This document shows, in pieces, positions 1,340-13,947 of a DNA stretch of 13,947 bases. The DNA is taken from NCBI GenBank assembly GCA_015486215.1, contig WFSA01000009.1:1-13947 (forward strand). Reading direction: 5' to 3'. Both the position numbers and the translations under genes were made by a program. Below the pieces are notes generated by a model. The model did not search any database and was not told the origin of the DNA. It worked only from the letters and a program-made list of their open reading frames with translations. How positions within the stretch are numbered: position 1 is the stretch's first letter; every line of letters begins with the position of its first letter. This stretch comes from Anaerolineae bacterium. GTDB taxonomy: Bacteria > Chloroflexota > Anaerolineae > Promineifilales > Promineifilaceae.

Positions 1340-1647
1340 GGCGGCTCTTGGTGATAAATCTGTCGCGGTGTCGGTAACACCCCTTACAGACAAGTTGATA
1401 GAACTGTGGGAGTCTTGATGATGGGAATGATAGCATGGTTCAAATTAGGGTGAATCATCTTTGCCTTTATTGCGCGATTGGGCGACCATAAAGGAATAAA
1501 TTATAGGGGCGCGGCCTTATGCCCGCCCCCAAAGTATAAAGATCATCTTGCGTAAAATGAGCCATGTCGAATTTAGTATGGAAGCATAACGCGGATGGCT
1601 TCGCACGCGGATTTAGCGGATAAACGCGGATTTCCTGCTTTGATCCA

Positions 1648-1864
1648 CACTTTATTTTACACGAGTATCATGTAACTTCTCAATATTTCGGGATGACTAC
1701 AACGGATGAAAGAAATAAACGGATAGAGCAGTCGAGAAAACATCCGTTCATTTTCATGATCCGCTGTAGTCATACTAAAAACAAAATAATGTCCCCGCTT
1801 TTTTGAGAAGATACAGTATCATTAGGAAAATTTGTCAAGTCTCCCCAGAATACTAAGGGAAGGT
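1648..1864 (+). mobile_element. Composite MITE-like locus (copy A). A 5'-truncated type-1 element is interrupted by a nested 143-bp type-2 element. It consists of type-1 spacer/right half 1648..1671 + 1815..1864, with the type-2 element at 1672..1814.
   Basis: 1648-1671 (CACTTTATTTTACACGAGTATCAT) and 1815-1858 (AGTATCATTAGGAAAATTTGTCAAGTCTCCCCAGAATACTAAGG) together reconstitute the spacer and right half of the 112-bp element seen intact at 3871..3982 and 8468..8579. The intervening 1672..1814 has its own TIRs, GTAACTTCTCAATA ... TTTTTTGAGAAGATAC. It is flanked by a direct duplication AGTATCAT at 1664-1671 and 1815-1822. Confidence 0.65.
1672..1814 (+). mobile_element. Type-2 MITE-like element (143 bp) nested inside copy A, with an 8-bp target-site duplication AGTATCAT.
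   Basis: The TIR GTAaCTTCTCAATA at 1672-1685 matches the reverse complement of TATTGAGAAGATAC-like end ...TTTTTTGAGAAGATAC at 1799-1814. This is the same TIR as the type-1 element. The flanking 8-bp direct repeats sit at 1664-1671 and 1815-1822. A homologous segment (TAATACTTCGGGGTGAGTACAAC...CCCCAGTTTTTTGAGAAGATAC) occurs at 13594..13709. Confidence 0.6.
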
Positions 1865-1927: not shown

Positions 1928-1957
1928 GTTATTTACGAGTTTTCCCTAAGAAGATAC
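1928..1957 (+). mobile_element. Internally deleted relic of the type-1 MITE, keeping a spacer fragment plus a solo right TIR.
   Basis: TATTTACGAGT ... TAAGAAGATAC resembles TATTTTACACGAGTA ... TGAGAAGATAC of the intact element. This is weak, eye-read similarity. Confidence 0.3.
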
Positions 1958-3851: not shown

Positions 3852-3870
3852 AGGATATTTAGTATCTTCT

Positions 3871-3982
3871 GTATCTTCTCAATAAATCGTGGACAAGACT
3901 TGACAAATTTCATCAGCACTTTATTTTACATGAGTACCATTAAGAAAATTTGTCAAGTCTCCCCCGAATACTGAGAAGATAC
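3871..3982 (+). mobile_element. Intact 112-bp type-1 MITE-like element (copy B) in the divergent promoter region between the hydrolase gene (-) and the sensor kinase gene (+).
   Basis: The TIR GTATCTTCTCAATA at 3871-3884 pairs with TATTCGG...TACTGAGAAGATAC ending at 3982. The internal 14-bp inverted repeat is GACTTGACAAATTT (3897-3910) and AAATTTGTCAAGTC (3946-3959), separated by a 35-bp spacer. A tandem partial duplicate GTATCTTCT sits immediately 5' at 3862-3870. It is the same element as 8468..8579 and 13503..13596. Confidence 0.75.
3900..3927 (+). promoter_or_regulatory. Sigma70-like promoter module inside MITE copy B. It is TTGACA-N16-TATTTT and reads toward the sensor kinase gene.
   Basis: A perfect -35 TTGACA at 3900-3905 is followed by a 16-nt spacer and TATTTT at 3922-3927, which keeps the conserved T1, A2 and T6 positions. 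The same module is present in copies C and D. In every copy it points at the adjacent gene. Confidence 0.35.
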
Positions 3983-4026: not shown

Positions 4027-4059
4027 AGGTGACAGGCACTTGCGAAGTGCCTGTCACCT
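4027..4059. repeat. Perfect 33-bp palindrome, copy 2 (centre GCG): AGGTGACAGGCACTT-GCG-AAGTGCCTGTCACCT.
   Basis: Arms 4027-4041 and 4045-4059 are exact reverse complements. Apart from the 3-nt centre it is identical to 1887..1919. It lies 45 bp downstream of MITE copy B and ~57 bp upstream of the kinase start codon. Confidence 0.8.
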
Positions 4060-4116: not shown

Positions 4117-6767
4117 TGATGCCCGCCCCCTATTTGAGCTATATTGATTTCAACCCCTACACATTCAACGCTGTCTCCCTATTTATCATCGGCTCACTCA
4201 GCGTTATCTATCTGCTGCGCCTCCAAAAGAAAACCGCCGCCTCGTGGTTCCTCATCACCAGCTTAGCCAGCTTCACGGCGGGCGTGATAGTCATGTTCTT
4301 CAGCGCCATCATCCTTTGGGGCGGTGTTTTGGATCTGTTCACGGACACCTTTGCCACCATCAGCATGGCCGCTCTGATCGGCTTTAACTACCATTATCCA
4401 CAACAAGTTACCTCCCGCGAGGCTGGTTTCGCACGTTTTTTTGCCGTCAGCATTAGCTTAACGGCCGTTATCATCAGCAGTTGGTATACGTGGCAAATTT
4501 ACAGAGTACATGCGTTTACAACGGCCGTTTCCCCCCTATTTTGGTTCCTGAATCCACTCATGTTTCTGGCCGCCCTGCTCGTCTCCATCCGCCGCGTCAT
4601 CATTATCGAACAACAAAAAACGGCAGCGGCAGGCTGGCATCATGCGTGGCTCGCCTTCTATCGGCCATCCCATCGTCAGGCGCGTTTATTGCGTAATTTC
4701 TCGTTAGCCTTATCGTTGGGATTGATACAAGGCATCGCCACTGGATTGAGCAGGACTGGACATATCTCGTCCCTGACGGCCGTTTACGCCATCAATCTCT
4801 CCCTGCTGCTGATGGTGGTTACCATCGTCTACGCCTCCTTTGAACTGACACAACAGCAGCCCGGTCTGATCATCCGTTTATTAGGACTTTCCCTGACGAC
4901 CTTATTACTGATTTTGGGCATTTTGGGCATATTTATGGTCAGTACCGCCATTGATTGGGTAAACATGCAAAACATCGCCTACACGAAAGTTGTGCAAAAA
5001 GTGGTTCGCGCTGACGAAACGGCCGCCTTGCCCGATGAAGTCGCCTACGTCGTCGCGTGGCCTAACGCGAAGACGGCGCAGTTGCTTTATGACAAACAGG
5101 GCACAATGGATATGCCATCCCTGATCGCCGAACAACAGCAAATAACGGCGAGAACGCTACCGCCCGCCGTCTGGATATCATTCATCCAGCCGCTCCTCCA
5201 CGCAGAAAACAGCACAACGGCCGTAAAATTCCGTTACGGATCAAACCCGCCCGGCTCTTGGCACCAATACGCCGCCTACACCTTTCGCCACGCTGGGATG
5301 GAGTACGAAGTCGGCTTCAAGTTGGCTGAGATGCGCCGCTTCCCCCGCGCCGTCAGCGTGGTTATGATTTGGGCGGTGATGTGCAGCACTCTCTTCATTC
5401 TCATCATTTTTCCGCTTTTTTTTAACGCTGATTTGATACGGCCATTAAACCGTTTGCTCGCTGGCGTGCAACAGGCGGATGACGGCGATCTAAACATCGC
5501 CATCCCTGTGGTACATGAAGATGAAGTCGGCTTTTTAACGGCCGCTTTCAACAAAATGGCCGCCTCATTACAAGATGAACTGACACAGCGACAACGCGCC
5601 CAAACAGAGTTACGCCATCTTGCCGATTCATTGGAGCGGCGCGTTGCCGCCCGTACCTACGAGTTGAGCGCATTATATGATGTTACCAAAGCGGCCAGCC
5701 AAGCACAAGATTTTCCCGCCTTGCTAACCGCCTCCCTCAACAGTGCCATCCGCGCCCTCAGCAGCGACGCTGGGTTTATTATTCTGACAGATGAAGAAGG
5801 GGTATCGCCGCACGCCACCTACCATCTAGCCACCCATCAAGGGATCGGCGATTGGCTGCCCCTTATTCAAAAAACGATTACCAACGGCGACTTTCTAGAA
5901 ATCATCAACCAACAAGACAAAGAACCCGTCCTCATCGCCAATACGTCCGCAGACCTACGTGCCCCGCATTTCATGCAGCTTATGCCGACGACGCTCCTCA
6001 TCGCGCCGTTATCGGCTGGAGAGCAGTTGTCGGGAGTGCTGATCGTCTACCGTGCTTTAGGACAAAGTTATAGCTTAAATGAGATTGCGCTGCTCATCTC
6101 AATCTCTGGACAACTGTCCATCGCCGCGCAAACAGACCGTCTGCGCCAACGCACCATCGTTTTGGAAGAGCGGCAGCGGCTCGCCCGCGACCTGCATGAT
6201 TCTGTCATCCAATCGCTTTATGGGCTGGCAACATTGACTGAAGTGGGAAAAATGCACGCCGCCGACGGAAATCTGGAGCCGATTGTGCCTATGTTCGCCA
6301 AAATCAGTAAGGCAGCACGGCAAGCGATTCGGGAAATGCGGCTGTTTATCCATCAATTGCGCCCGATGATTTTGGAACAGGAAGGGTTAGCCGACGCGCT
6401 GGAACTGCGGCTAACGGCCGTCGAAGGGCGTTCAGATGTGCAAGTGCGCCTGCAAGCCGATCCCGACCTGCGCCTGCCGCTGCCACTGGAAACCGCGCTC
6501 TATCAAATCGCGCAGGAAGCCCTCAACAACATTTTGCGTCACGCCCACGCGGAAACGATCATTATCACGCTGCACGGGCAAAACGGCCGTTTCATCCTAG
6601 AAATCCAAGACGACGGGCGCGGATTCGACCCGAATAAGGTTGACAACGGCCGTTTAGGGTTGAACAATATGCGGGCACGGGCGAAAGAGATTGGAGCTGA
6701 GTTTGCCATCACCTCCGCGCTCGGCATCGGAACCAAGATAAATATTGTGGTACATTATGACCCATAA
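4116..6767 (+). CDS. Sensor histidine kinase of the NarL-partner (HisKA_3) class. The N-terminal region has ~10 transmembrane helices and a ~130-aa extracytoplasmic loop, followed by HAMP, coiled-coil, GAF, HisKA_3 and HATPase_c domains.
   Basis: The H-box is ERQRLARDLHDSVIQSLYGL (HisKA_3 type). HAMP-like RPLNRLLAGVQQADDGDLNIAIP...GFLTAAFNKMAASLQDEL is present. A GAF-like segment (ALYDVTKAAS...GVLIVYRALGQ) follows. The ATPase has the N box QIAQEALNNILRHA and the G boxes DDGRGFD and GLGLNNMRARA. I prefer ATG 4116/4119 over the listed 4029, which lies inside the 33-bp palindrome. The stop codon at 6765-6767 overlaps the downstream regulator start. Confidence 0.85.
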   Translation: MMPAPYLSYIDFNPYTFNAVSLFIIGSLSVIYLLRLQKKTAASWFLITSLASFTAGVIVMFFSAIILWGGVLDLFTDTFATISMAALIGFNYHYPQQVTSREAGFARFFAVSISLTAVIISSWYTWQIYRVHAFTTAVSPLFWFLNPLMFLAALLVSIRRVIIIEQQKTAAAGWHHAWLAFYRPSHRQARLLRNFSLALSLGLIQGIATGLSRTGHISSLTAVYAINLSLLLMVVTIVYASFELTQQQPGLIIRLLGLSLTTLLLILGILGIFMVSTAIDWVNMQNIAYTKVVQKVVRADETAALPDEVAYVVAWPNAKTAQLLYDKQGTMDMPSLIAEQQQITARTLPPAVWISFIQPLLHAENSTTAVKFRYGSNPPGSWHQYAAYTFRHAGMEYEVGFKLAEMRRFPRAVSVVMIWAVMCSTLFILIIFPLFFNADLIRPLNRLLAGVQQADDGDLNIAIPVVHEDEVGFLTAAFNKMAASLQDELTQRQRAQTELRHLADSLERRVAARTYELSALYDVTKAASQAQDFPALLTASLNSAIRALSSDAGFIILTDEEGVSPHATYHLATHQGIGDWLPLIQKTITNGDFLEIINQQDKEPVLIANTSADLRAPHFMQLMPTTLLIAPLSAGEQLSGVLIVYRALGQSYSLNEIALLISISGQLSIAAQTDRLRQRTIVLEERQRLARDLHDSVIQSLYGLATLTEVGKMHAADGNLEPIVPMFAKISKAARQAIREMRLFIHQLRPMILEQEGLADALELRLTAVEGRSDVQVRLQADPDLRLPLPLETALYQIAQEALNNILRHAHAETIIITLHGQNGRFILEIQDDGRGFDPNKVDNGRLGLNNMRARAKEIGAEFAITSALGIGTKINIVVHYDP

Positions 6768-7434: not shown

Positions 7435-7511
7435 TACACCGCTGCATACTATTTTCCTGATGGGATCAAAAGGTCAATTTCTTGAAGAAGTTGCCCTTTT
7501 TGGCGTGAGAA

Positions 7512-7553
7512 CTGGGTATAAATACCCACTCCAAAAGGCATCATTCTCCCCTA
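7512..7553 (+). promoter_or_regulatory. Conserved ~42-bp motif containing the palindrome GGGTAT-AA-ATACCC (7514-7527), followed by CACTCCAAAA...CATTCTCCCCT. This is copy 1 of 2.
   Basis: The second copy at 10185..10226 is CTGGGTAAAAATACCCACTCAAAA...TCATTCTCCCCTGTC. The palindromic core is conserved as 5-bp arms GGGTA/TACCC around 4 central A/T bases. It lies 78 bp downstream of the regulator stop and 134 bp upstream of the LamG gene ATG. Confidence 0.5.
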
Positions 7554-7653
7554 TCCATCGGGTATCGCCCCTTGTTACCATATAATGCATCCATTTATCG
7601 TACGGCAAAGTATGTGGGCAACGGCCGTAGTATCATTACAAGGAGCAGTAAGA

Positions 7654-8457
7654 ATGAAGAAAAAATGGTCAAACTCATTTTTATTATGCATATCATTAGT
7701 ACTACTCACTGGATCAAGTCTCATCAACGGGGAGTATTTCACCGCCAACATCGCCTTAGTCAACGCCAATGAGTCTGCCCAGCAAGGAGCGGTTGCATAC
7801 TGGAAGTGCGACGATGGATCGGGAACCGTCGCCAGCGACAGTTCTGGCAACGACCACGATGGAACTCTGGTCAGCACGACATGGACATCCGATGTCCCTC
7901 CCACCAGTTATGACAACCCCTCTGCCCTGCAATTTGATGGAGCAGACGATTATGTATTTGTGCCGGATGCTTCCGAATTACGCATCTCAAATAACTTTAC
8001 GTTGGCATTTTGGTTCAAATCAGGTTCGACAACGCAATCAGGTAAATATCTGTTGGCTCGGAATAGTACTGCCGCCAGCGATCAAATCGCCGTCATCTAT
8101 GAATACACAGAAGATGTGATTGAATTTTACGTGCAGGGATACAGTGGAGAGAATCCACGTTCTGGATCACAACTGCCTTTGGCAGACACAGAGTGGCATC
8201 ATATAGCGTATACCTACGATGGCACAACTTGGGCTGGGTATGTAGACGGTGTGCAAAAATTTGCAGTTTCCCGATCGTTTCTCTTGCCCACAGATGCTTT
8301 GGACGGCTGGTATATAGGTGCTGCCAGCACCATCACATCAGGACGTGTAAATGGCCGTATGGATGATGTGCGTATCTACCTCCATGCGCTCTCACCCATA
8401 GAAATCCAGATACTGACTGCATCCGACGCTGTTTACCTGCCTCTTGTCCTAAAATAG
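7654..8457 (+). CDS. Secreted LamG_3 / concanavalin-A-like lectin-fold protein (267 aa) with an N-terminal signal peptide.
   Basis: AAGGAG lies 8 nt upstream of ATG 7654, so I prefer this start over the listed 7585. The signal peptide is MKKKWSNSFLLCISLVLLTGSS. LamG_3 hallmarks are ALQFDGADDYVFVP, FTLAFWFK, WHHIAYTYDGTTWAGYVDG and MDDVRIYLHALSPIEI. Confidence 0.75.
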   Translation: MKKKWSNSFLLCISLVLLTGSSLINGEYFTANIALVNANESAQQGAVAYWKCDDGSGTVASDSSGNDHDGTLVSTTWTSDVPPTSYDNPSALQFDGADDYVFVPDASELRISNNFTLAFWFKSGSTTQSGKYLLARNSTAASDQIAVIYEYTEDVIEFYVQGYSGENPRSGSQLPLADTEWHHIAYTYDGTTWAGYVDGVQKFAVSRSFLLPTDALDGWYIGAASTITSGRVNGRMDDVRIYLHALSPIEIQILTASDAVYLPLVLK

Positions 8458-8467
8458 AAAATATGCC

Positions 8468-8579
8468 GTATCTTCTCAATAAATCGTGGACAAGAGTTGA
8501 CAAATTTCATCAGCACTTTATTTTACACGAGTATCATTAGGAAAATTTGTCAACTCTCCCCAGAATACTGAGAAGATAC
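8468..8579 (+). mobile_element. Intact 112-bp type-1 MITE-like element (copy C) between the LamG gene and the lipoprotein gene.
   Basis: The TIRs are GTATCTTCTCAATA (8468-8481) and TACTGAGAAGATAC (8566-8579). The internal inverted-repeat arms here are GAGTTGACAAATTT and AAATTTGTCAACTC. Relative to copies B and D this is a compensatory C>G / G>C pair. The flanks AAATATGCC (left) and AATACGCCC (right) look like a degenerate 8-bp target-site duplication. Confidence 0.75.
8497..8524 (+). promoter_or_regulatory. TTGACA-N16-TATTTT promoter module inside MITE copy C, reading toward the lipoprotein gene.
   Basis: TTGACA is at 8497-8502 and TATTTT at 8519-8524. This is the same module as in copies B and D. 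The lipoprotein ATG is 123 bp downstream and has a strong SD. Confidence 0.35.
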
Positions 8580-8646
8580 AATACGCCCATTAAAAAATTC
8601 GGGACTCGTTTCCCTCTAGCTCTAGCTATCAATAAAGGAGAAAACC

Positions 8647-10053
8647 ATGACTACAAGAAAAACTGTCTATATTTTTATATTTACCCTTCTTGCACTATCT
8701 ATCGCCGCTTGTAAATCAGAACAAGAAACGGACGATACGGCCGTTGCCGTTTCAGTTGCCCTGACACAAACAGCAGTTGTGCCGACAGCAGCAACGGCCG
8801 TTGCCCCAACCGTCGCCCCAGCCATAATTTCAGTTGAGCCGACAGAGCCGACAAAGCCGACAGAAGAAACGGCCGTGCCGACAGAAGCAGCCGAATCCCC
8901 AGCCGAAGAACTCGGTTTCATCACTGGCAGGGCGCATTTAATGGCTCCGCCAACACCTTCTTTAACCATCTACGCCGTCAATATCGCAACTGGCGAATGG
9001 GTTTCTGTAGACACGGCCGAAGCGGATGGCGAAGCTGCCTATACGCTGGAACTACCGTCAGGCTCCTATCATGTATTTGCTTCCTACGGCTTGGGCTACT
9101 CATCTGACAATAAAGGGTTAACTCCTGTCGTTGTCAACGCAGGGCAAACAACAACAGATATTACACTCTCTCCCCCTTCCCCATCCGATTGCGGCCCGAT
9201 GTTCGGCATTCCCGCCTCTCCAGATGGAGCGTATGCGGAAATTCCCGGCCCCTCAGAAGAATGTTCGTCATCTTCCGCCGCCCCAGCCCCAGCCGAAACC
9301 GAAGCAACGCGCATCCAATTCGCGCCCGGAGATGATTCTGCCCAGATTTTTGGCGACATCCTCCCTCATGGAGTTGACCATTACCTGATAAGCGCAGCGG
9401 CCGGGCAGGAAATGACAGTGAATGTTGATGTATTTGAAGACAACCCGATAACCCTCGCTATCGCAGGCGCAGATGGAACAATCCTCAATCAATACGATAC
9501 AGATACCACCACATGGACGGGCATACTTCCCTCTACACAAGAGTATTACATTGATATTCTCTCCAGATACGATCAAACGAGTATTGATTATGCGTTGGTA
9601 GTAATGATTCGCACGGTAGAAGAGACGAATAGCAGCTATCAGCCGCCCTCTCCATCAATCTGTCAAATTATTCAAGAGACAGCAAACGAGGCTGTCCCAG
9701 CCACCTTTACGCTGGAGTCCAGCGCACCTTTTATAGACCCCTCATCTGGAGAATCAGGGCTGGGATGCAGCTTGACGACAACTGGGAACGGGGTTGATTT
9801 TTCCAGCCCTAACGATGTAATAACCAGCTTGGTACACGCCTTTATCGGATGGGAGGAACAAGCGGCATATCAGGCGGATGGGCCGACTGGATCGGCAACG
9901 GGAATGACCCGCGATATGGGCTTGCTGTTAATTAACGCAGAGTGGGAAGCGGCACCAGAAGTACAATGTCCCTCAGATCAACCCATATCAGCTTGCAGCA
10001 TCAATCCAGAACAAAAACTATACACCATTCATATACAAGTCGCGCAAAAGTAA
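8647..10053 (+). CDS. Lipoprotein with a Pro/Thr/Ala-rich linker, a CarboxypepD_reg-like beta-sandwich domain and a PPC (pre-peptidase C-terminal)-like domain. Its function is unknown.
   Basis: AAGGAG lies 8 nt upstream of ATG 8647. The signal peptide carries a lipobox (LLALSIAAC, Cys22). The linker is low-complexity PT/A-rich (VAPTVAPAIISVEPTEPTKPTEE). ITGRAHLM...IYAVNIATGEWVSVDTAEADGEAAYTLELPSGSYHVF resembles a carboxypeptidase regulatory-like fold. ATRIQFAPGDDSAQIFGDILPHGVDHYLISAAAGQEMTVNV...YYIDILS resembles a PPC domain. Confidence 0.8.
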   Translation: MTTRKTVYIFIFTLLALSIAACKSEQETDDTAVAVSVALTQTAVVPTAATAVAPTVAPAIISVEPTEPTKPTEETAVPTEAAESPAEELGFITGRAHLMAPPTPSLTIYAVNIATGEWVSVDTAEADGEAAYTLELPSGSYHVFASYGLGYSSDNKGLTPVVVNAGQTTTDITLSPPSPSDCGPMFGIPASPDGAYAEIPGPSEECSSSSAAPAPAETEATRIQFAPGDDSAQIFGDILPHGVDHYLISAAAGQEMTVNVDVFEDNPITLAIAGADGTILNQYDTDTTTWTGILPSTQEYYIDILSRYDQTSIDYALVVMIRTVEETNSSYQPPSPSICQIIQETANEAVPATFTLESSAPFIDPSSGESGLGCSLTTTGNGVDFSSPNDVITSLVHAFIGWEEQAAYQADGPTGSATGMTRDMGLLLINAEWEAAPEVQCPSDQPISACSINPEQKLYTIHIQVAQK

Positions 10054-10115: not shown

Positions 10116-10176
10116 AAATTGGACACTGATCACACTGATTTCACTGATTTTTATCTGTGCAATCAGTGTCCAATTT
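10116..10176. promoter_or_regulatory. 15-bp inverted repeat (AAATTGGACACTGAT / ATCAGTGTCCAATTT) enclosing three direct CACTGAT repeats at 9-bp spacing. It is iteron-like and possibly a terminator.
   Basis: The arms are at 10116-10130 and 10162-10176. CACTGAT occurs at 10124, 10133 and 10142, with a reverse-complement copy ATCAGTG at 10162-10168. It sits 63 bp after the lipoprotein stop and ~85 bp before the receiver ORF. The RNA stem would end in AAUUU/UUUUG. Confidence 0.45.
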
Positions 10177-10184
10177 TGCAAGAG

Positions 10185-10226
10185 CTGGGTAAAAATACCC
10201 ACTCAAAACCCACTCATTCTCCCCTG
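10185..10226 (+). promoter_or_regulatory. Copy 2 of the GGGTA-N4-TACCC motif (GGGTAAAAATACCC at 10187-10200), 68 bp upstream of the ATG of the receiver ORF.
   Basis: See 7512..7553. A possible -10 TATATC lies at 10240-10245. Confidence 0.5.
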
Positions 10227-10260
10227 TCAAAGAGAGGTGTATATCTGCTAATTTTGTAGT

Positions 10261-10632
10261 ATGAACACAAAACAGATCACCATCCTCATTATCGCACCAG
10301 CAGGACGTATGGCCGACACGCTTTCTGTGTTATTGAAATCCAATACTCAGATCACGCTGCTCGGCCAAATTGCCGATCCAGATGTCGGCCTGCGTCTGAT
10401 TGTTGAACGCCAGCCCGATGCTGTGATCATAGACGCAAATTTACCCGACAATGCCGTTTGGCCGCTTTTATCACAATTAAAAACGGCCGTTCCCCACACC
10501 CGCCGCTTCGTTCTGATCCACTCATCCCAACAAAGAAAACAGGTCAAAACCACAGGTGCTGACACTATATCCGCATCTGAATGTAATGCTAAAAAATTGT
10601 TTTTAGGAATGGGAATTTTATCTTCTCAATGA
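10261..10632 (+). CDS. Atypical receiver (REC)-like single-domain protein, 123 aa. It may be a MITE-truncated response-regulator remnant or pseudo-receiver.
   Basis: ITILIIAPAGRMADTLSVLL...PDAVIIDANLPD has a REC-like fold signature and a conserved Asp at the DANLP position, but the N-terminal acidic pair (DD) is replaced by AP. The last 4 codons and the TGA (10618-10632) lie inside a decayed MITE TIR (TTATCTTCTCAATGA). I see no SD. Confidence 0.45.
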   Translation: MNTKQITILIIAPAGRMADTLSVLLKSNTQITLLGQIADPDVGLRLIVERQPDAVIIDANLPDNAVWPLLSQLKTAVPHTRRFVLIHSSQQRKQVKTTGADTISASECNAKKLFLGMGILSSQ

Positions 10633-10696
10633 AAGGGCAAAAGAGCTGATAGATTTCATCAAAGCCTCTCAATTTACACGAGTACCACAAAAAAAC
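10618..10696 (+). mobile_element. Decayed type-1 MITE relic (copy E), keeping the left TIR and part of the spacer.
   Basis: TATCTTCTCAAT...GATTTCATCA...CAATTTACACGAGTACCAC resembles GTATCTTCTCAAT...AATTTCATCA...TTATTTTACACGAGTATCAT of the intact element. The right half is missing and replaced by the 118-bp inverted-repeat element at 10697. Confidence 0.4.
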
Positions 10697-10985: not shown

Positions 10986-12770
10986 CTAGCTATCGCTCTT
11001 ACTCTTACTCATCTGCTCACGCAGAACCATCGCCAACAACCCATCCACCATCCCGTTCCCCCCGCCCTGTCCACTCTGGACAGCGATGTCAGGAATAATG
11101 CGGACATCCTGCTCGCCGATGATCTGCATGAGTTGAACGGCCGTATACCCATCACCCCCCAGCGCTTCCACGCCCACCCGGTACGCATCCGCCTGCGCCT
11201 GCCCCATGCTGCGAATCGCTTCCGATTCACCCATTGAGCGCAACTTGATCGCCTCAGCATCACCTTCCGCCTTCTTTACCGTAGAATGCGCTTCCAGTTC
11301 AGCGATTTGCACCCCTTTCTCAGAGCGCACCATCTCGTGCTGAATGTCAGCCATCGAAGTTGCCCGCACGAGCAATTGCCGCTGCTCTTGCGCCATCTGC
11401 TGCACCTCATACGTCTTACGCTCTTCCTCCGCGATCTTGCGGTCAGTTTGCGTAACCATCAGCTTTTCGGGCGGCGTAATGTCGCCGATCAGCGTGTCAA
11501 TCGCCTGCACATCATACGCGCTGATGGCGGTACGGATATGCGAAGCCGCTTCCGCTTGCCGCTCACTGCGTGCGCTCAAAAAGTCCAATACCGTGTATTC
11601 CTGCGCCGAGTTGCGGAAGTAGTTGCCGACAATCGGCTGCAACACATGGTCAACCAGATTTTGCACTGCACCCACGCGGGAAATCACCTTTGGCGCGTCG
11701 AGCGCACCGATATGGATGATTTGGGCGACATCCAGATTGAACGCAAAGCCATCTTGCGAACGCACCGTAATCGGGGCTAAACGGGTGTCGTATGAATGTT
11801 CTTCCGTCCGCCGCGCCCAGTTCAAGACAATATTGGTCGTCGGTACTAATTCAATTTTTAAGATGCGTGTGTTCAACGGATGCTTGCCCGGATAAAGCGG
11901 CGTAACCCACACCCCTTTGTGTCCCGGATCAACTAAATTGCCATGACGGAAGCCGGCCCCGCTCACGTCCTGATGCACTTTGCCGACGAAGGCGATGACG
12001 ATACCAACGTGACCAATCGGTATTTCAGTCATCCGTACTTGTTCCACATTAACAAACCACGGGTTCAGATTCCATGCGCCAGAGAGCAAAATCTGCTCTT
12101 GCAAGCCGCGACGGCCGTTGTTATTGAGGAACTTTTGCGGCTCTTGGAAATTCTCATGGTCAAAAACCGTCTGCCCCGCAATTTCGCCCTCATCAATAGG
12201 TGCGCCGTCTAAAGCGGTGATGATGCCAACCATGTCGGAGGCAATGGTATACACCTGCAACTGTTGCGGGGTCATGTGATATGATTCCGCATTGCTGGCG
12301 GTGATGACAGAAAACAAGGCGGTGTTAATGCGATAGATGCCAGCTGTCAGGATGTCCAATTGCCGCCCTTTTTCGCCGCCATTCAGCAGAAATTTTTCCG
12401 CATTCTGGAAGCTGTTGCATTCCACAACCTGTCCTAAAATACGGCTGGGAGGGGGCGTTCTGCCGTCAGCAGCCACAATAAGCCCAATCTGCCCTTGCGG
12501 AATGCGAATGACGGGTACTTTTTTCACCGAGAACCGCCACGGATGGAAGCCGAAGTGCCAGCCAGGAGACAAAGTTGCCGCCTGATAGCCAGCTTCCCCT
12601 TTCAGGGCAATATGCCTGCCCGCCGCCAACGCGGGGCCAAGCTTCTTAACGACGATGCCCACTTCCCGCTCACCAATGATCACCAATCCGAACAGGGATT
12701 TACTGAAGATAACAACGAATACTAAAATGATTAGGCCGACGAAAACGGCCGTTACTGCTATGTTAAACAT
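10986..12770 (-). CDS. Flotillin-like SPFH (band-7) domain membrane protein of the YqiK/FloT family, ~594 aa.
   Basis: The N-terminal TM is MFNIAVTAVFVGLIILVFVVIF. The SPFH core is GIVVKKLGP...IRIPQGQIGLIVAADG... and continues to ...FNLDVAQIIHIGALDAPKVI. The C-terminal region is Ala/Glu/Gln-rich coiled-coil (EAAS...QMAQEQRQLLVRA...ELEAHSTVKKAEGDAEAIKL). GGAG lies ~9 nt upstream of ATG 12770, so I prefer this start over the listed 12851. Confidence 0.8.
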   Translation of the reverse strand: MFNIAVTAVFVGLIILVFVVIFSKSLFGLVIIGEREVGIVVKKLGPALAAGRHIALKGEAGYQAATLSPGWHFGFHPWRFSVKKVPVIRIPQGQIGLIVAADGRTPPPSRILGQVVECNSFQNAEKFLLNGGEKGRQLDILTAGIYRINTALFSVITASNAESYHMTPQQLQVYTIASDMVGIITALDGAPIDEGEIAGQTVFDHENFQEPQKFLNNNGRRGLQEQILLSGAWNLNPWFVNVEQVRMTEIPIGHVGIVIAFVGKVHQDVSGAGFRHGNLVDPGHKGVWVTPLYPGKHPLNTRILKIELVPTTNIVLNWARRTEEHSYDTRLAPITVRSQDGFAFNLDVAQIIHIGALDAPKVISRVGAVQNLVDHVLQPIVGNYFRNSAQEYTVLDFLSARSERQAEAASHIRTAISAYDVQAIDTLIGDITPPEKLMVTQTDRKIAEEERKTYEVQQMAQEQRQLLVRATSMADIQHEMVRSEKGVQIAELEAHSTVKKAEGDAEAIKLRSMGESEAIRSMGQAQADAYRVGVEALGGDGYTAVQLMQIIGEQDVRIIPDIAVQSGQGGGNGMVDGLLAMVLREQMSKSKSDS

Positions 12771-12810
12771 AATTACTCCATATGAAAGATAACCTACTTC
12801 TAATCCCGCG

Positions 12811-13338
12811 CTATGAAAGCCTCGAGAACTGTTGTTGAATGCGTGTAACAATCATTCTTGCCTCAGCTTCTTCCACGCCGTCACCAAAGCGGTACGTTTT
12901 TGCCCCATAATCAAAAGTGATAGGGCCGTCCATCCTGTATATCATGCCTATAGAAGCACGTCCTCTACGCACTCGAGGTCTATCAACAACACGCAAATTC
13001 GATATGGACGCACAATCAAATGATCTCGTATGTCCGACACCCCATATCTGCCGCCGTATATGAAAAAGATCATAATCCACTTTGACAACCTCTTTCCCCA
13101 GCAGCATCCACAACAGTGACAGTATCGAAGAAAGGCCGACTAATCCCCATATCAATATAAACGGCCCGCCCTCAACCATTGTCGAAAACTCAAAAGTGAA
13201 GGCAAATGCCCAAAACATCAGCCATATTGGCAGAAACATCAATAATGACCACTCTTTACGGCTGGGTATGATAAATATTAGTTGATTGCCAAACTGCTCA
13301 ACATGATGTCGAGCAACTTCCGGCTGTATTACGGACAT
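12811..13338 (-). CDS. Small membrane protein (175 aa) with 2 TM helices and a C-terminal ~90-aa soluble domain. It is co-operonic and upstream of the flotillin gene and may be NfeD-like.
   Basis: GAGGAG lies ~9 nt upstream of ATG 13338. The hydrophobic segments are LLMFLPIWLMFWAFAFTF and FILIWGLVGLSSILSLLWMLL. It lies 40 bp upstream of the flotillin start. The NfeD assignment rests only on the known yuaF-floT / yqiJ-yqiK gene pairing. Confidence 0.6.
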   Translation of the reverse strand: MSVIQPEVARHHVEQFGNQLIFIIPSRKEWSLLMFLPIWLMFWAFAFTFEFSTMVEGGPFILIWGLVGLSSILSLLWMLLGKEVVKVDYDLFHIRRQIWGVGHTRSFDCASISNLRVVDRPRVRRGRASIGMIYRMDGPITFDYGAKTYRFGDGVEEAEARMIVTRIQQQFSRLS

Positions 13339-13502
13339 AAAAAAAACTCCTCTAGCTTACAGATCATATTCGTAGGCTTAACGAATATATTTGACTGTCA
13401 TTCCTGCCTTCGCTGAGCCCGCCCTCGTCGAGATGGGGGAATGACAAACCGTTAAGTTTACAACAATGCTTACAGATAGATGCACGAATAGAAGCCGCTT
13501 TG

Positions 13503-13709
13503 GTATCTTCTTAGTATTCTGGGGAGACTTGACAAATTTTCCTAATGATACTCGTATAAAATAAAGTGCTGATGAAATTTGTCAAGTCTTGTCCATAATA
13601 CTTCGGGGTGAGTACAACAAATCAAGAAAGGAATAAATTGCATCAGTCGAGTCAACCTGCTCTTTTCCAAATCTGCTGTACTCATGTCCCCAGTTTTTTG
13701 AGAAGATAC
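13503..13709 (-). mobile_element. Chimeric MITE-like element (copy D) in reverse orientation, flanked by a perfect 9-bp target-site duplication GCCGCTTTG. It is a type-1 body (13503-13596) fused to a type-2 3' portion (13597-13709).
   Basis: The left TIR is GTATCTTCTTAGTATT and the right end is TTTTTTGAGAAGATAC. The 9-bp direct repeats are at 13494-13502 and 13710-13718. The internal inverted repeat is GACTTGACAAATTT / AAATTTGTCAAGTC. The segment 13597-13709 matches the type-2 element 1690-1814 in the same way (AATACTTCGGGGTGAGTACAAC...CCCCAGTTTTTTGAGAAGATAC). Confidence 0.7.
13558..13585 (-). promoter_or_regulatory. TTGACA-N16-TATTTT promoter module of MITE copy D on the minus strand, reading toward the NfeD-like/flotillin operon.
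   Basis: On the minus strand, TTGACA is at 13585-13580 and TATTTT at 13563-13558. The predicted leader to ATG 13338 is ~210 nt and contains a 9-bp-stem hairpin (13396-13404 / 13438-13446). Confidence 0.3.
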
Positions 13710-13947
13710 GCCGCTTTGTCGTTAAGACAAAACGGCCGTTATCACGATCTCTATCCAGAGTGATATGGTTGCAGAATGGGGCTAACTGTATGCGAAGGTA
13801 CGCAGAACAGAACGGCAAAGCCGCCCAAGTCAGCAATATAGAACTCCTATTATAGGGAATACGGGGGGATGTGACAGTAACGGGTCACATCAAATAGGCA
13901 CTTTTGGTTTCATAACCAATCTATCCTCCACCGGGTCTTAGGGAAGG

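Follow-up and report, generated by a model that had tools for sequence, protein, structure and literature searches.

What places a nearly palindromic 112-bp repeat again and again in the spaces between the genes of an uncultured bacterium, and does the repeat move? The question is raised by positions 1 to 13,947 of contig WFSA01000009.1 (assembly GCA_015486215.1, an Anaerolineae bacterium of the Chloroflexota), hereafter the window, in which a repeat noted at 3871-3982 recurs together with fragments and relatives of itself. A preliminary description of the window, made from its sequence alone, had read the repeat as a miniature inverted-repeat transposable element (MITE), and the additional copies, variable duplications, empty site and full-length relatives reported below back that interpretation. 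Taken with this evidence, the elements are very probably non-autonomous MITEs mobilised by an IS66-type transposase that is encoded elsewhere. They match the termini of full-length insertion sequences, duplicate their insertion sites, fill a site that is empty in a relative, nest one inside another and are dispersed in three lineages; in all tested respects they are textbook MITEs, selfish DNA of a well-understood sort. What is new is the MITE family itself, its uncultured Anaerolineae host and its tie to a distant branch of IS66 elements with a single open reading frame (ORF). The literature searched gave no description of IS66-derived MITEs or of MITEs in Chloroflexota; it named IS66 only where insertion sequences are listed and derived no MITE from it, which is not proof of novelty.

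Termini, duplicated targets and an empty site

The terminal sequence GTATCTTCTCARWA, with at most one mismatch, has eight matches in the window against 0.01 expected, a number that none of 200 shuffles reached. These eight matches form four inward-facing pairs (1672/1814, 3871/3982, 8468/8579 and 13503/13709), and the elements come in three sizes: 112 bp for type 1, 143 bp for type 2 and 207 bp for a composite of the two. In total, type 1 is represented in the 14-kb window by four complete or partial copies and type 2 by two units, besides two relics, and by the window's ORF list no element contains a complete ORF. The inverted termini had been described as 14 bp long; they are real, and across the wider family they extend to about 22 bp (GTATCTTCTCAATAAWYCGGGG). 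Two type-1 copies, B (3871-3982, plus strand) and C (8468-8579, plus strand, 112 bp), were located by repeat finding in the window just where they had been placed before, and are 92% identical to each other.

Copy D shows how such units may travel. It had been described as a reverse copy at 13503-13596 within a perfect 9-bp target-site duplication. The duplication is indeed perfect (GCCGCTTTG, 9/9, at 13494-13502 and 13710-13718), and the unit that it bounds is the longer stretch 13503-13709 (207 bp), in which a type-1 part is fused to a type-2 part. The type-1 part (13503-13595, minus strand) lacks the left 19 nt, left terminus included, and is 94-96% complementary to B and C; the type-2 part (13596-13709, minus strand, 114 bp) gives the second outer terminus and has lost its inner one. 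With outer termini that come one from each parent type, the composite appears to have moved as a single unit.

A relative carries the same locus without the element. Contig JBPNDF010000291 of assembly GCA_054008415.1, together with a Logan contig, has the same two-gene flotillin operon; window positions 10996-13364 and 13711-13941 align to the relative's contig, and the nucleotide identity is 93-94% on both flanks of copy D (loci L141 and L142). Where the window reads GCCGCTTTG, the 207-bp element and GCCGCTTTG again, the relative has the target once and lacks the element (...AGATGCACGAATCGAA ACCGCTTTG TCCTCAAGG...; its left flank is also given as ...GAATCGAA ACCGCTTTG TCC...), so that the comparison of orthologous loci proposed in the preliminary description yields a precise empty site for copy D. 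No empty sites for copies A, B and C were found through exact matches of the proteins beside B and C, and the 478-aa neighbour has no close orthologue except in the same strain, whose contig also has copy B. The flotillin gene itself, which among named homologues is closest to those of Anaerolineales and Chloroflexota metagenome-assembled genomes (MAGs), recurs at 99.9% identity on ENA scaffold ERZ23495180 and in NCBI MAG GCA_027076705.1. The scaffold ends inside copy C and the contig of GCA_027076705.1 begins exactly at the edge of copy D; that two independent assemblies break at C and D fits the behaviour of assemblers at multi-copy repeats.

Copy A provides a case of nesting. It had been reported as truncated from 1648; a truncated type-1 copy is present, and its homology begins at about 1639. 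The left fragment (1639-1671, plus strand) comprises the central part only, its left terminus and left arm being gone, while the right fragment (1815-1857, plus strand), 100% complementary to 13510-13552, ends ...ACTAAG without the last 7 nt of the terminus. The insertion between them had also been recognised, along with its 8-bp duplication, which is exact (AGTATCAT, 8/8, at 1664-1671 and 1815-1822); the insert is a second type of element with the same termini, namely type 2 (1672-1814, plus strand, 143 bp, GTAACTTCTCAATA...TTGAGAAGATAC). Copies C and D, uninterrupted at this point, read ...ACGAGTATCATTAGG... and therefore serve as the empty site of the nested insertion. The two type-2 copies are homologous and both have a long inner stem, the arms of which differ on both sides between the copies (GACTAC...GTAGTC and GAGTAC...GTACTC).

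Copy C, which lies 10 nt past the stop of the gene at 7585-8457 and 67 nt upstream of the gene at 8647, is flanked by AATATGCC (8460-8467) and AATACGCC (8580-8587), a 7/8 match that bears out the degenerate 8-bp duplication noted before. The same pattern holds well beyond the window. Among the matches listed from the window, a related MAG and metagenome loci, 67 inward-facing terminus pairs had both flanks; 31 of these have a perfect 8-bp flanking repeat, 13 an 8-bp repeat with one mismatch and two a perfect 9-bp repeat, against 0/65 with one mismatch or none in a control with the flanks displaced by 15 nt. The repeated sequences are all different among the pairs and thus belong to the insertion sites, not to the element, which disposes of the concern that they could be part of the repeat itself. 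The 31 perfect 8-bp duplications show no evident target consensus.

Further copies, which the preliminary description had suggested looking for, were found when species-representative genomes were scanned with the two inner arms of type 1. Anaerolineae bacterium bin30017 (JANTHP01) has at least six type-1 copies on six contigs, 81-91% identical to B or C, and the metagenome Ga0164318 has seven copies of the 112-bp element at 75-77% identity; all of these lie between ordinary genes, with no transposase close by. In particular, none was detected with Pfam near related copies in the bin30017 flanks (20 of the 27 longest flanking ORFs, of transposase-like size). A distant search of a plasmid collection with the 112-bp element returned only 34-nt chance matches (E = 1), and viral contigs had no match to the terminus pattern.

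Full-length partners and the probable parent family

The window encodes no transposase, as had been stated: none of its 10 main ORFs has a transposase domain. The source of the enzyme was sought through the terminus, for which the metagenome search used the pattern GTATCTTCTCAADWWWBCGKGG. The pattern occurs at 120 or more metagenome loci from many environments, and the matches listed include dozens of inverted pairs of 74-270 bp with unrelated cores and a common terminus; one such short family, of 91-92 bp, occurs in Ga0194xxx samples. Also among them are at least 12 intact elements, 1760-2342 bp long and with the 22-bp terminus at both ends, and one more (L134) with a disrupted ORF. Typically 1.76-1.95 kb long, the intact elements are each filled by one ORF of about 1.65 kb that encodes 546-590 aa (around 550 aa), other ORFs being overlapping antisense frames. 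These products match PF03050 (DDE_Tnp_IS66) with E values of 2.6e-14 (53.7 bits, cut-off 23.1) and 5.8e-13, both above the gathering score. The search for a full-length insertion sequence with the same termini, also proposed earlier, has hence led to an IS66-family DDE transposase.

The 12 transposases are pairwise 47-88% identical and have invariant D, D and E-containing motifs (WQ..D.T..RV.G.N, D.A, LCW.H..RH and PLHNN.AEL..R.R.RKR). The full-length elements lack tnpA and tnpB and leave no space for either, which corresponds to the single-ORF organisation of the ISBst12 group. Full-length copies have duplications of 8-9 bp (TGGAAATC, GCATTTTC and ATATGCAGG), as does the interrupted copy L078 of about 3 kb (CGAAAAAAG), and the earlier inference that a duplication of this length narrows the choice of family was right. 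Furthermore, the window's left terminus GTATCTTCTCAATAAATCGTGG differs at a single position from the termini of L030 and L138. The branch is a populous one: at E < 1e-20 the transposase has more than 7,700 matches among database proteins, and all matches listed carry PF03050. The homologues lie mostly on contigs of 1.8-2.5 kb and are often labelled 'hypothetical' or 'ZapB'.

These observations suggest the following mechanism. Types 1 and 2 would be gene-less derivatives that retain only the terminal inverted repeat of about 22 bp, GTATCTTCTCAATAWWYCGGGG, which also bounds a large environmental clade of ISBst12-like insertion sequences of the IS66 family with one ORF each. The transposase from a full-length copy elsewhere would bind both termini, and the short element would be excised or copied and then inserted at a staggered cut, the repair of which would leave a target-site duplication of 8 bp, occasionally 9 bp. 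Genic insertions would be removed by selection, such that copies survive only between genes. Of this model, the termini, the duplications, the empty site and the nesting are shown, and mobilisation in trans by an IS66-type enzyme is inferred from them. The absence of copies from gene bodies, part of the preliminary description, holds, with the qualification that the relic at 10618-10696 supplies the stop codon of the ORF at 10261-10632.

Among known systems, the nearest parallel is ISDge4 of Deinococcus geothermalis, a member of the ISBst12 group that has been shown experimentally to transpose and has a single ORF, an 8-bp repeat, termini GTGACTACTCAGCA and GTAACTGCTCAGCA and a transposase of 449 aa (PMC12898284). 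The elements described here resemble it in the single IS66 DDE ORF of the full-length copies, without tnpA/tnpB, in the 8-bp repeats and, at some ends, in the GTAAC-N-CTCA form of terminus, and its terminus GTAACTGCTCAGCA is identical to the window's GTAACTTCTCAATA at 11/14 positions. They differ from it in that the full-length transposases are about 550 aa long and fall below the NCBI IS66 cut-off, and in that most termini read GTATC. From the ISBst12 group they are further set apart by a terminus that is a well-conserved 22-mer ending CGGGG, and the window has only gene-less derivatives of 112-207 bp. The canonical three-gene form of IS66 (tnpA, tnpB, tnpC) is not matched by the full-length elements.

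As to the short elements, the Correia/NEMIS elements of Neisseria, the RUP elements of Streptococcus pneumoniae and the MITEs of Pseudomonas syringae and Cardinium are likewise short, non-coding, multi-copy and intergenic, with terminal inverted repeats, duplications of fixed length, a transposase in trans, a long hairpin and possible promoter-like sequences. They have other parent families and no sequence similarity to the elements here; Correia elements duplicate TA, in contrast to the 8-9 bp found in the window. Two of these known bacterial MITEs are MITEPsy1 of P. syringae (PMC3189936) and the Cardinium MITE (PMC9769881).

Two other accounts of the elements have to be weighed. A MITE could be moved by another family with duplications of 8-9 bp, namely the IS903 group of IS5, ISL3 or IS256, which we regard as very unlikely. 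ISL3 and IS256 give duplications of 8-9 bp, and IS903 makes duplications of 9 bp, the length seen at copy D; the left terminus GTATCTTCTCAATAAATCG agrees with the IS903 terminus GGCTTTGTTGAATAAATCG, verified at 100% against plasmid copies annotated as IS903, at 13/19 positions, and AATAAATCG is common to the IS903 terminus and the type-1 left end. However, the main duplication length is 8 bp rather than 9, the invariant first 12 nt of the terminus have six differences from IS903, and the terminal trinucleotide and transposase family are not those of IS903: all 12 of the 12 intact full-length elements with the terminus encode an IS66-type DDE transposase, and none an IS5, ISL3 or IS256 enzyme. 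Since all full-length elements are IS66-type, IS903, ISL3 and IS256 were rejected as parents, and the resemblance to IS903 is treated as coincidental. Even less credible, to our minds, is that the elements are not mobile as small units at all, being either palindromes of the REP/BIME/ERIC kind or remnants left by deletion of full-length insertion sequences in situ. The restriction to intergenic positions, the almost perfect palindromes and the conserved stem would suit such a history; the precise empty site at copy D, the recurrence of the same 112-bp structure at loci unrelated to one another, with a separate duplication at each, the nesting of one small element in another and the composite with its own 9-bp duplication do not. 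REP and BIME elements, which are associated with RAYT, are palindromes of 20-40 bp that neither share terminal repeats with a DDE element nor duplicate their target, whereas the elements here measure 112-207 bp and have both. Nor did they match Rfam, in which only sub-threshold microRNA noise at other coordinates came up.

Several findings also weigh against mobilisation by an IS66-type enzyme, our preferred account. Copy B has no target-site duplication, the sole complete copy without one, and the left terminus is gone in four of the six bin30017 copies listed. The full-length partners, found in metagenomes where the preliminary description had expected them 'elsewhere', include none from the genome itself: neither this genome nor bin30017 yielded a full-length element, and the type-1 inner-arm sequence occurs in none of the sampled full-length elements, whose subterminal regions were searched. 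The NCBIfam IS66 model NF033517 scores 119 bits against a cut-off of 180, and the Pfam DDE profile aligns well over the C-terminal part only; from the score below the NCBIfam cut-off, the transposase belongs to a distant IS66 branch. Finally, IS66 termini usually begin 5'-GTAA. The type-2 left end (1672) and the left ends of the bin30017 and Ga0164318 copies do start with GTAAC, but the other window termini and the full-length elements, in most of their termini, start with GTATC.

The inner stem and a promoter-like sequence

Beyond their termini, type-1 elements have a second pair of inverted repeats, which raises the question of whether they do more than move. The inner arms had been given as 14 bp with a 35-bp spacer; the 35-nt spacer stands, and the arms (AGACTTGACAAATTT and its complement, arm GACTTGACAAATTT) are 15 bp long. 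In copy B, whose termini are complete, they lie at 3896-3910 and 3946-3960. The 112-bp copies fold as one long hairpin in which the outer 11 bp are paired, with energies of -20 to -22 kcal/mol as DNA (z -6.3 to -7.2) and -36 to -50 kcal/mol as RNA. When 16 copies from three lineages are aligned, pairing in the 15-bp inner helix reaches 99.2%, against 27-45% in a control with the partner slid by 1-3 columns. In four pairs of the helix both partners have been replaced (one C-G by G-C, one T-A by C-G and two A-T by G-C), compensatory changes that amount to few evolutionary events. The inner arms possibly belong to a long transposase-binding end whose two copies co-evolve; alternatively, a DNA or RNA hairpin may be required of the inner stem, or its pairing may be kept by palindrome correction through template switching.

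The left arm also bears on a regulatory reading, which we consider unlikely: the type-1 subfamily would have been recruited as a promoter or regulatory hairpin that travels with the element, with a sigma-70-like promoter in the left arm firing rightwards into the downstream gene and the stem acting as DNA or RNA. Copy B has TTGACA-N16-TATTTT at 3900-3927, and this sequence (10/12 consensus), among the best promoter-like sites of the window, recurs in each of the three complete copies of the window and always points at the next gene. Among the matches listed from the window and bin30017, furthermore, nine of ten right ends and three of nine left ends are turned towards a gene start, and the paired and compensated helix just described would fit a functional stem. 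Against this, the -10-like hexamer is not kept, being CGTCTT or CGTTTT in bin30017 and also unlike in the Ga0164318 copies, where the -35 sequence is CTGACA; the orientation bias is absent in Ga0164318, with one of five right ends facing a gene start, although the numbers are small. A promoter consensus scan of the window gave 26 sites against 16.7 expected and is no proof of function, and in a DNA palindrome compensatory changes may also arise through co-evolving transposase-binding ends or template-switch correction. As the -10-like hexamer is specific to the window subfamily, a family-wide promoter is unsupported and was rejected. The broader proposition of an undescribed, environment-wide superfamily of IS66-derived MITEs, in which the Anaerolineae type-1 branch, no longer purely selfish, would act on the genes beside it as a mobile cassette, a promoter or a hairpin, through its compensated stem and outward promoter-like site, strikes us as decidedly unlikely.

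Relics, neighbouring repeats and significance

Both relics are present where the preliminary description had them. The one at 1928-1957 (plus strand, ...TTATTTACGAGTTTTCCCTAAGAAGATAC) is a degenerate right end that stops 10 nt before the ATG at 1968. From the sequence, the tip of copy A may have been displaced to this place across a stretch of about 88 bp that includes a hairpin repeat; CTAAG is present on both sides of this stretch. The other, at 10618-10696 (plus strand, TTATCTTCTCAATG...TTTACACGAGTACCAC), is the left two-thirds of a diverged type-1 element, and its terminus gives the last codons as well as the stop codon of the ORF at 10261-10632. The main ORFs of the window encode a GH5-like hydrolase, a zinc-ribbon protein, a secreted protein, a GAF/HAMP histidine kinase, a LuxR-type regulator, a LamG protein, a receiver domain, a flotillin and others.

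Several features of individual copies were noted in passing. Directly upstream of copy B, at 3862-3870, lies a tandem duplicate of the first 9 nt of its terminus (GTATCTTCT). A terminator-like hairpin, GCCGTTTTGTC-TTAAC-GACAAAGCGGC (13710-13736, minus strand), contains the target of copy D in its stem, and the copy at locus L019 of the related MAG also adjoins a terminator-like hairpin. Copies in L008, L012, L015 and L019 of that MAG and copy D of the window (13595/13596) lose the left terminus at, or very close to, one breakpoint just before TGGAYAAG; the L019 copy at 5547-5644 breaks seven bases further out, before AATCG, and has a perfect 9-bp flanking repeat (ATCAAGCGG) though its first 12 terminal bases are gone, a 'one-ended' duplication. 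A third short variant occupies positions 7442-7560 of L019: the shared terminus (GTATCTTCTCAAGTTTTCGGGG) comes before two different hairpins there, and the far end is degenerate.

A second, unrelated insertion of 104 bp lies close to copy D, at 13365-13468, between perfect 9-bp repeats (CTTACAGAT, 13356-13364 and 13469-13477) and with imperfect terminal repeats (CATATTCGTAGGCTTAACG and CATTGTTGTAAACTTAACGG). It is absent from L141 and L142, where a single CTTACAGAT marks a precise empty site for another MITE-like family; no further copies were found in the sequences examined. Just downstream of copies A and B, at unequal distances, stands a perfect hairpin of 33 nt, GGTGACAGGCACTTG(GC/CG)AAGTGCCTGTCACC (1887-1919 and 4027-4059, 95-97% identical). 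Having no T-run, it is not a typical terminator, and it may be a separate small repeat family.

Two other kinds of repeat occur in the window. The palindrome ACGGCCGT is found 27 times in 13.9 kb, about once per 516 bp and mostly inside genes (for example at 151-160, 1191-1200, 2336-2345, 4460-4469, 6582-6591 and 12744-12753), and the decamer AACGGCCGTT 14 times against 0.02 expected. The density of the octamer is 1.1-1.9 per kb in the related MAG, and likewise in the Ga0164318 loci with type-1 relatives, whereas other metagenome loci, 605 kb in total, have only 0.08 per kb. By its distribution it looks like a lineage-specific, highly iterated palindrome of the HIP1 kind; a literature search for the palindrome string returned nothing relevant. 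Genes that start near 7654 and 10261 are preceded by a direct repeat of 48 nt (7508-7555 and 10181-10228, 81% identity, core CTGGGTAwAAATACCCACTC), and a 24-bp inverted repeat (10116-10139 and 10153-10176) stands just before its second copy. Together these could be shared regulatory sites; the gene of the LuxR-type regulator adjoins.

An effect of the MITEs on neighbouring genes is possible. In practical terms, short repeats of this kind fragment short-read assemblies of Anaerolineae; because contigs end at them, a known terminus aids scaffolding and annotation. The finding ties a MITE family to a very abundant and poorly annotated branch of IS66-type elements. The mechanism of transposition in the IS66 family is still poorly characterised (PMC12898284), and the 22-bp end and the 112-bp substrate are now available for experiments on this family.

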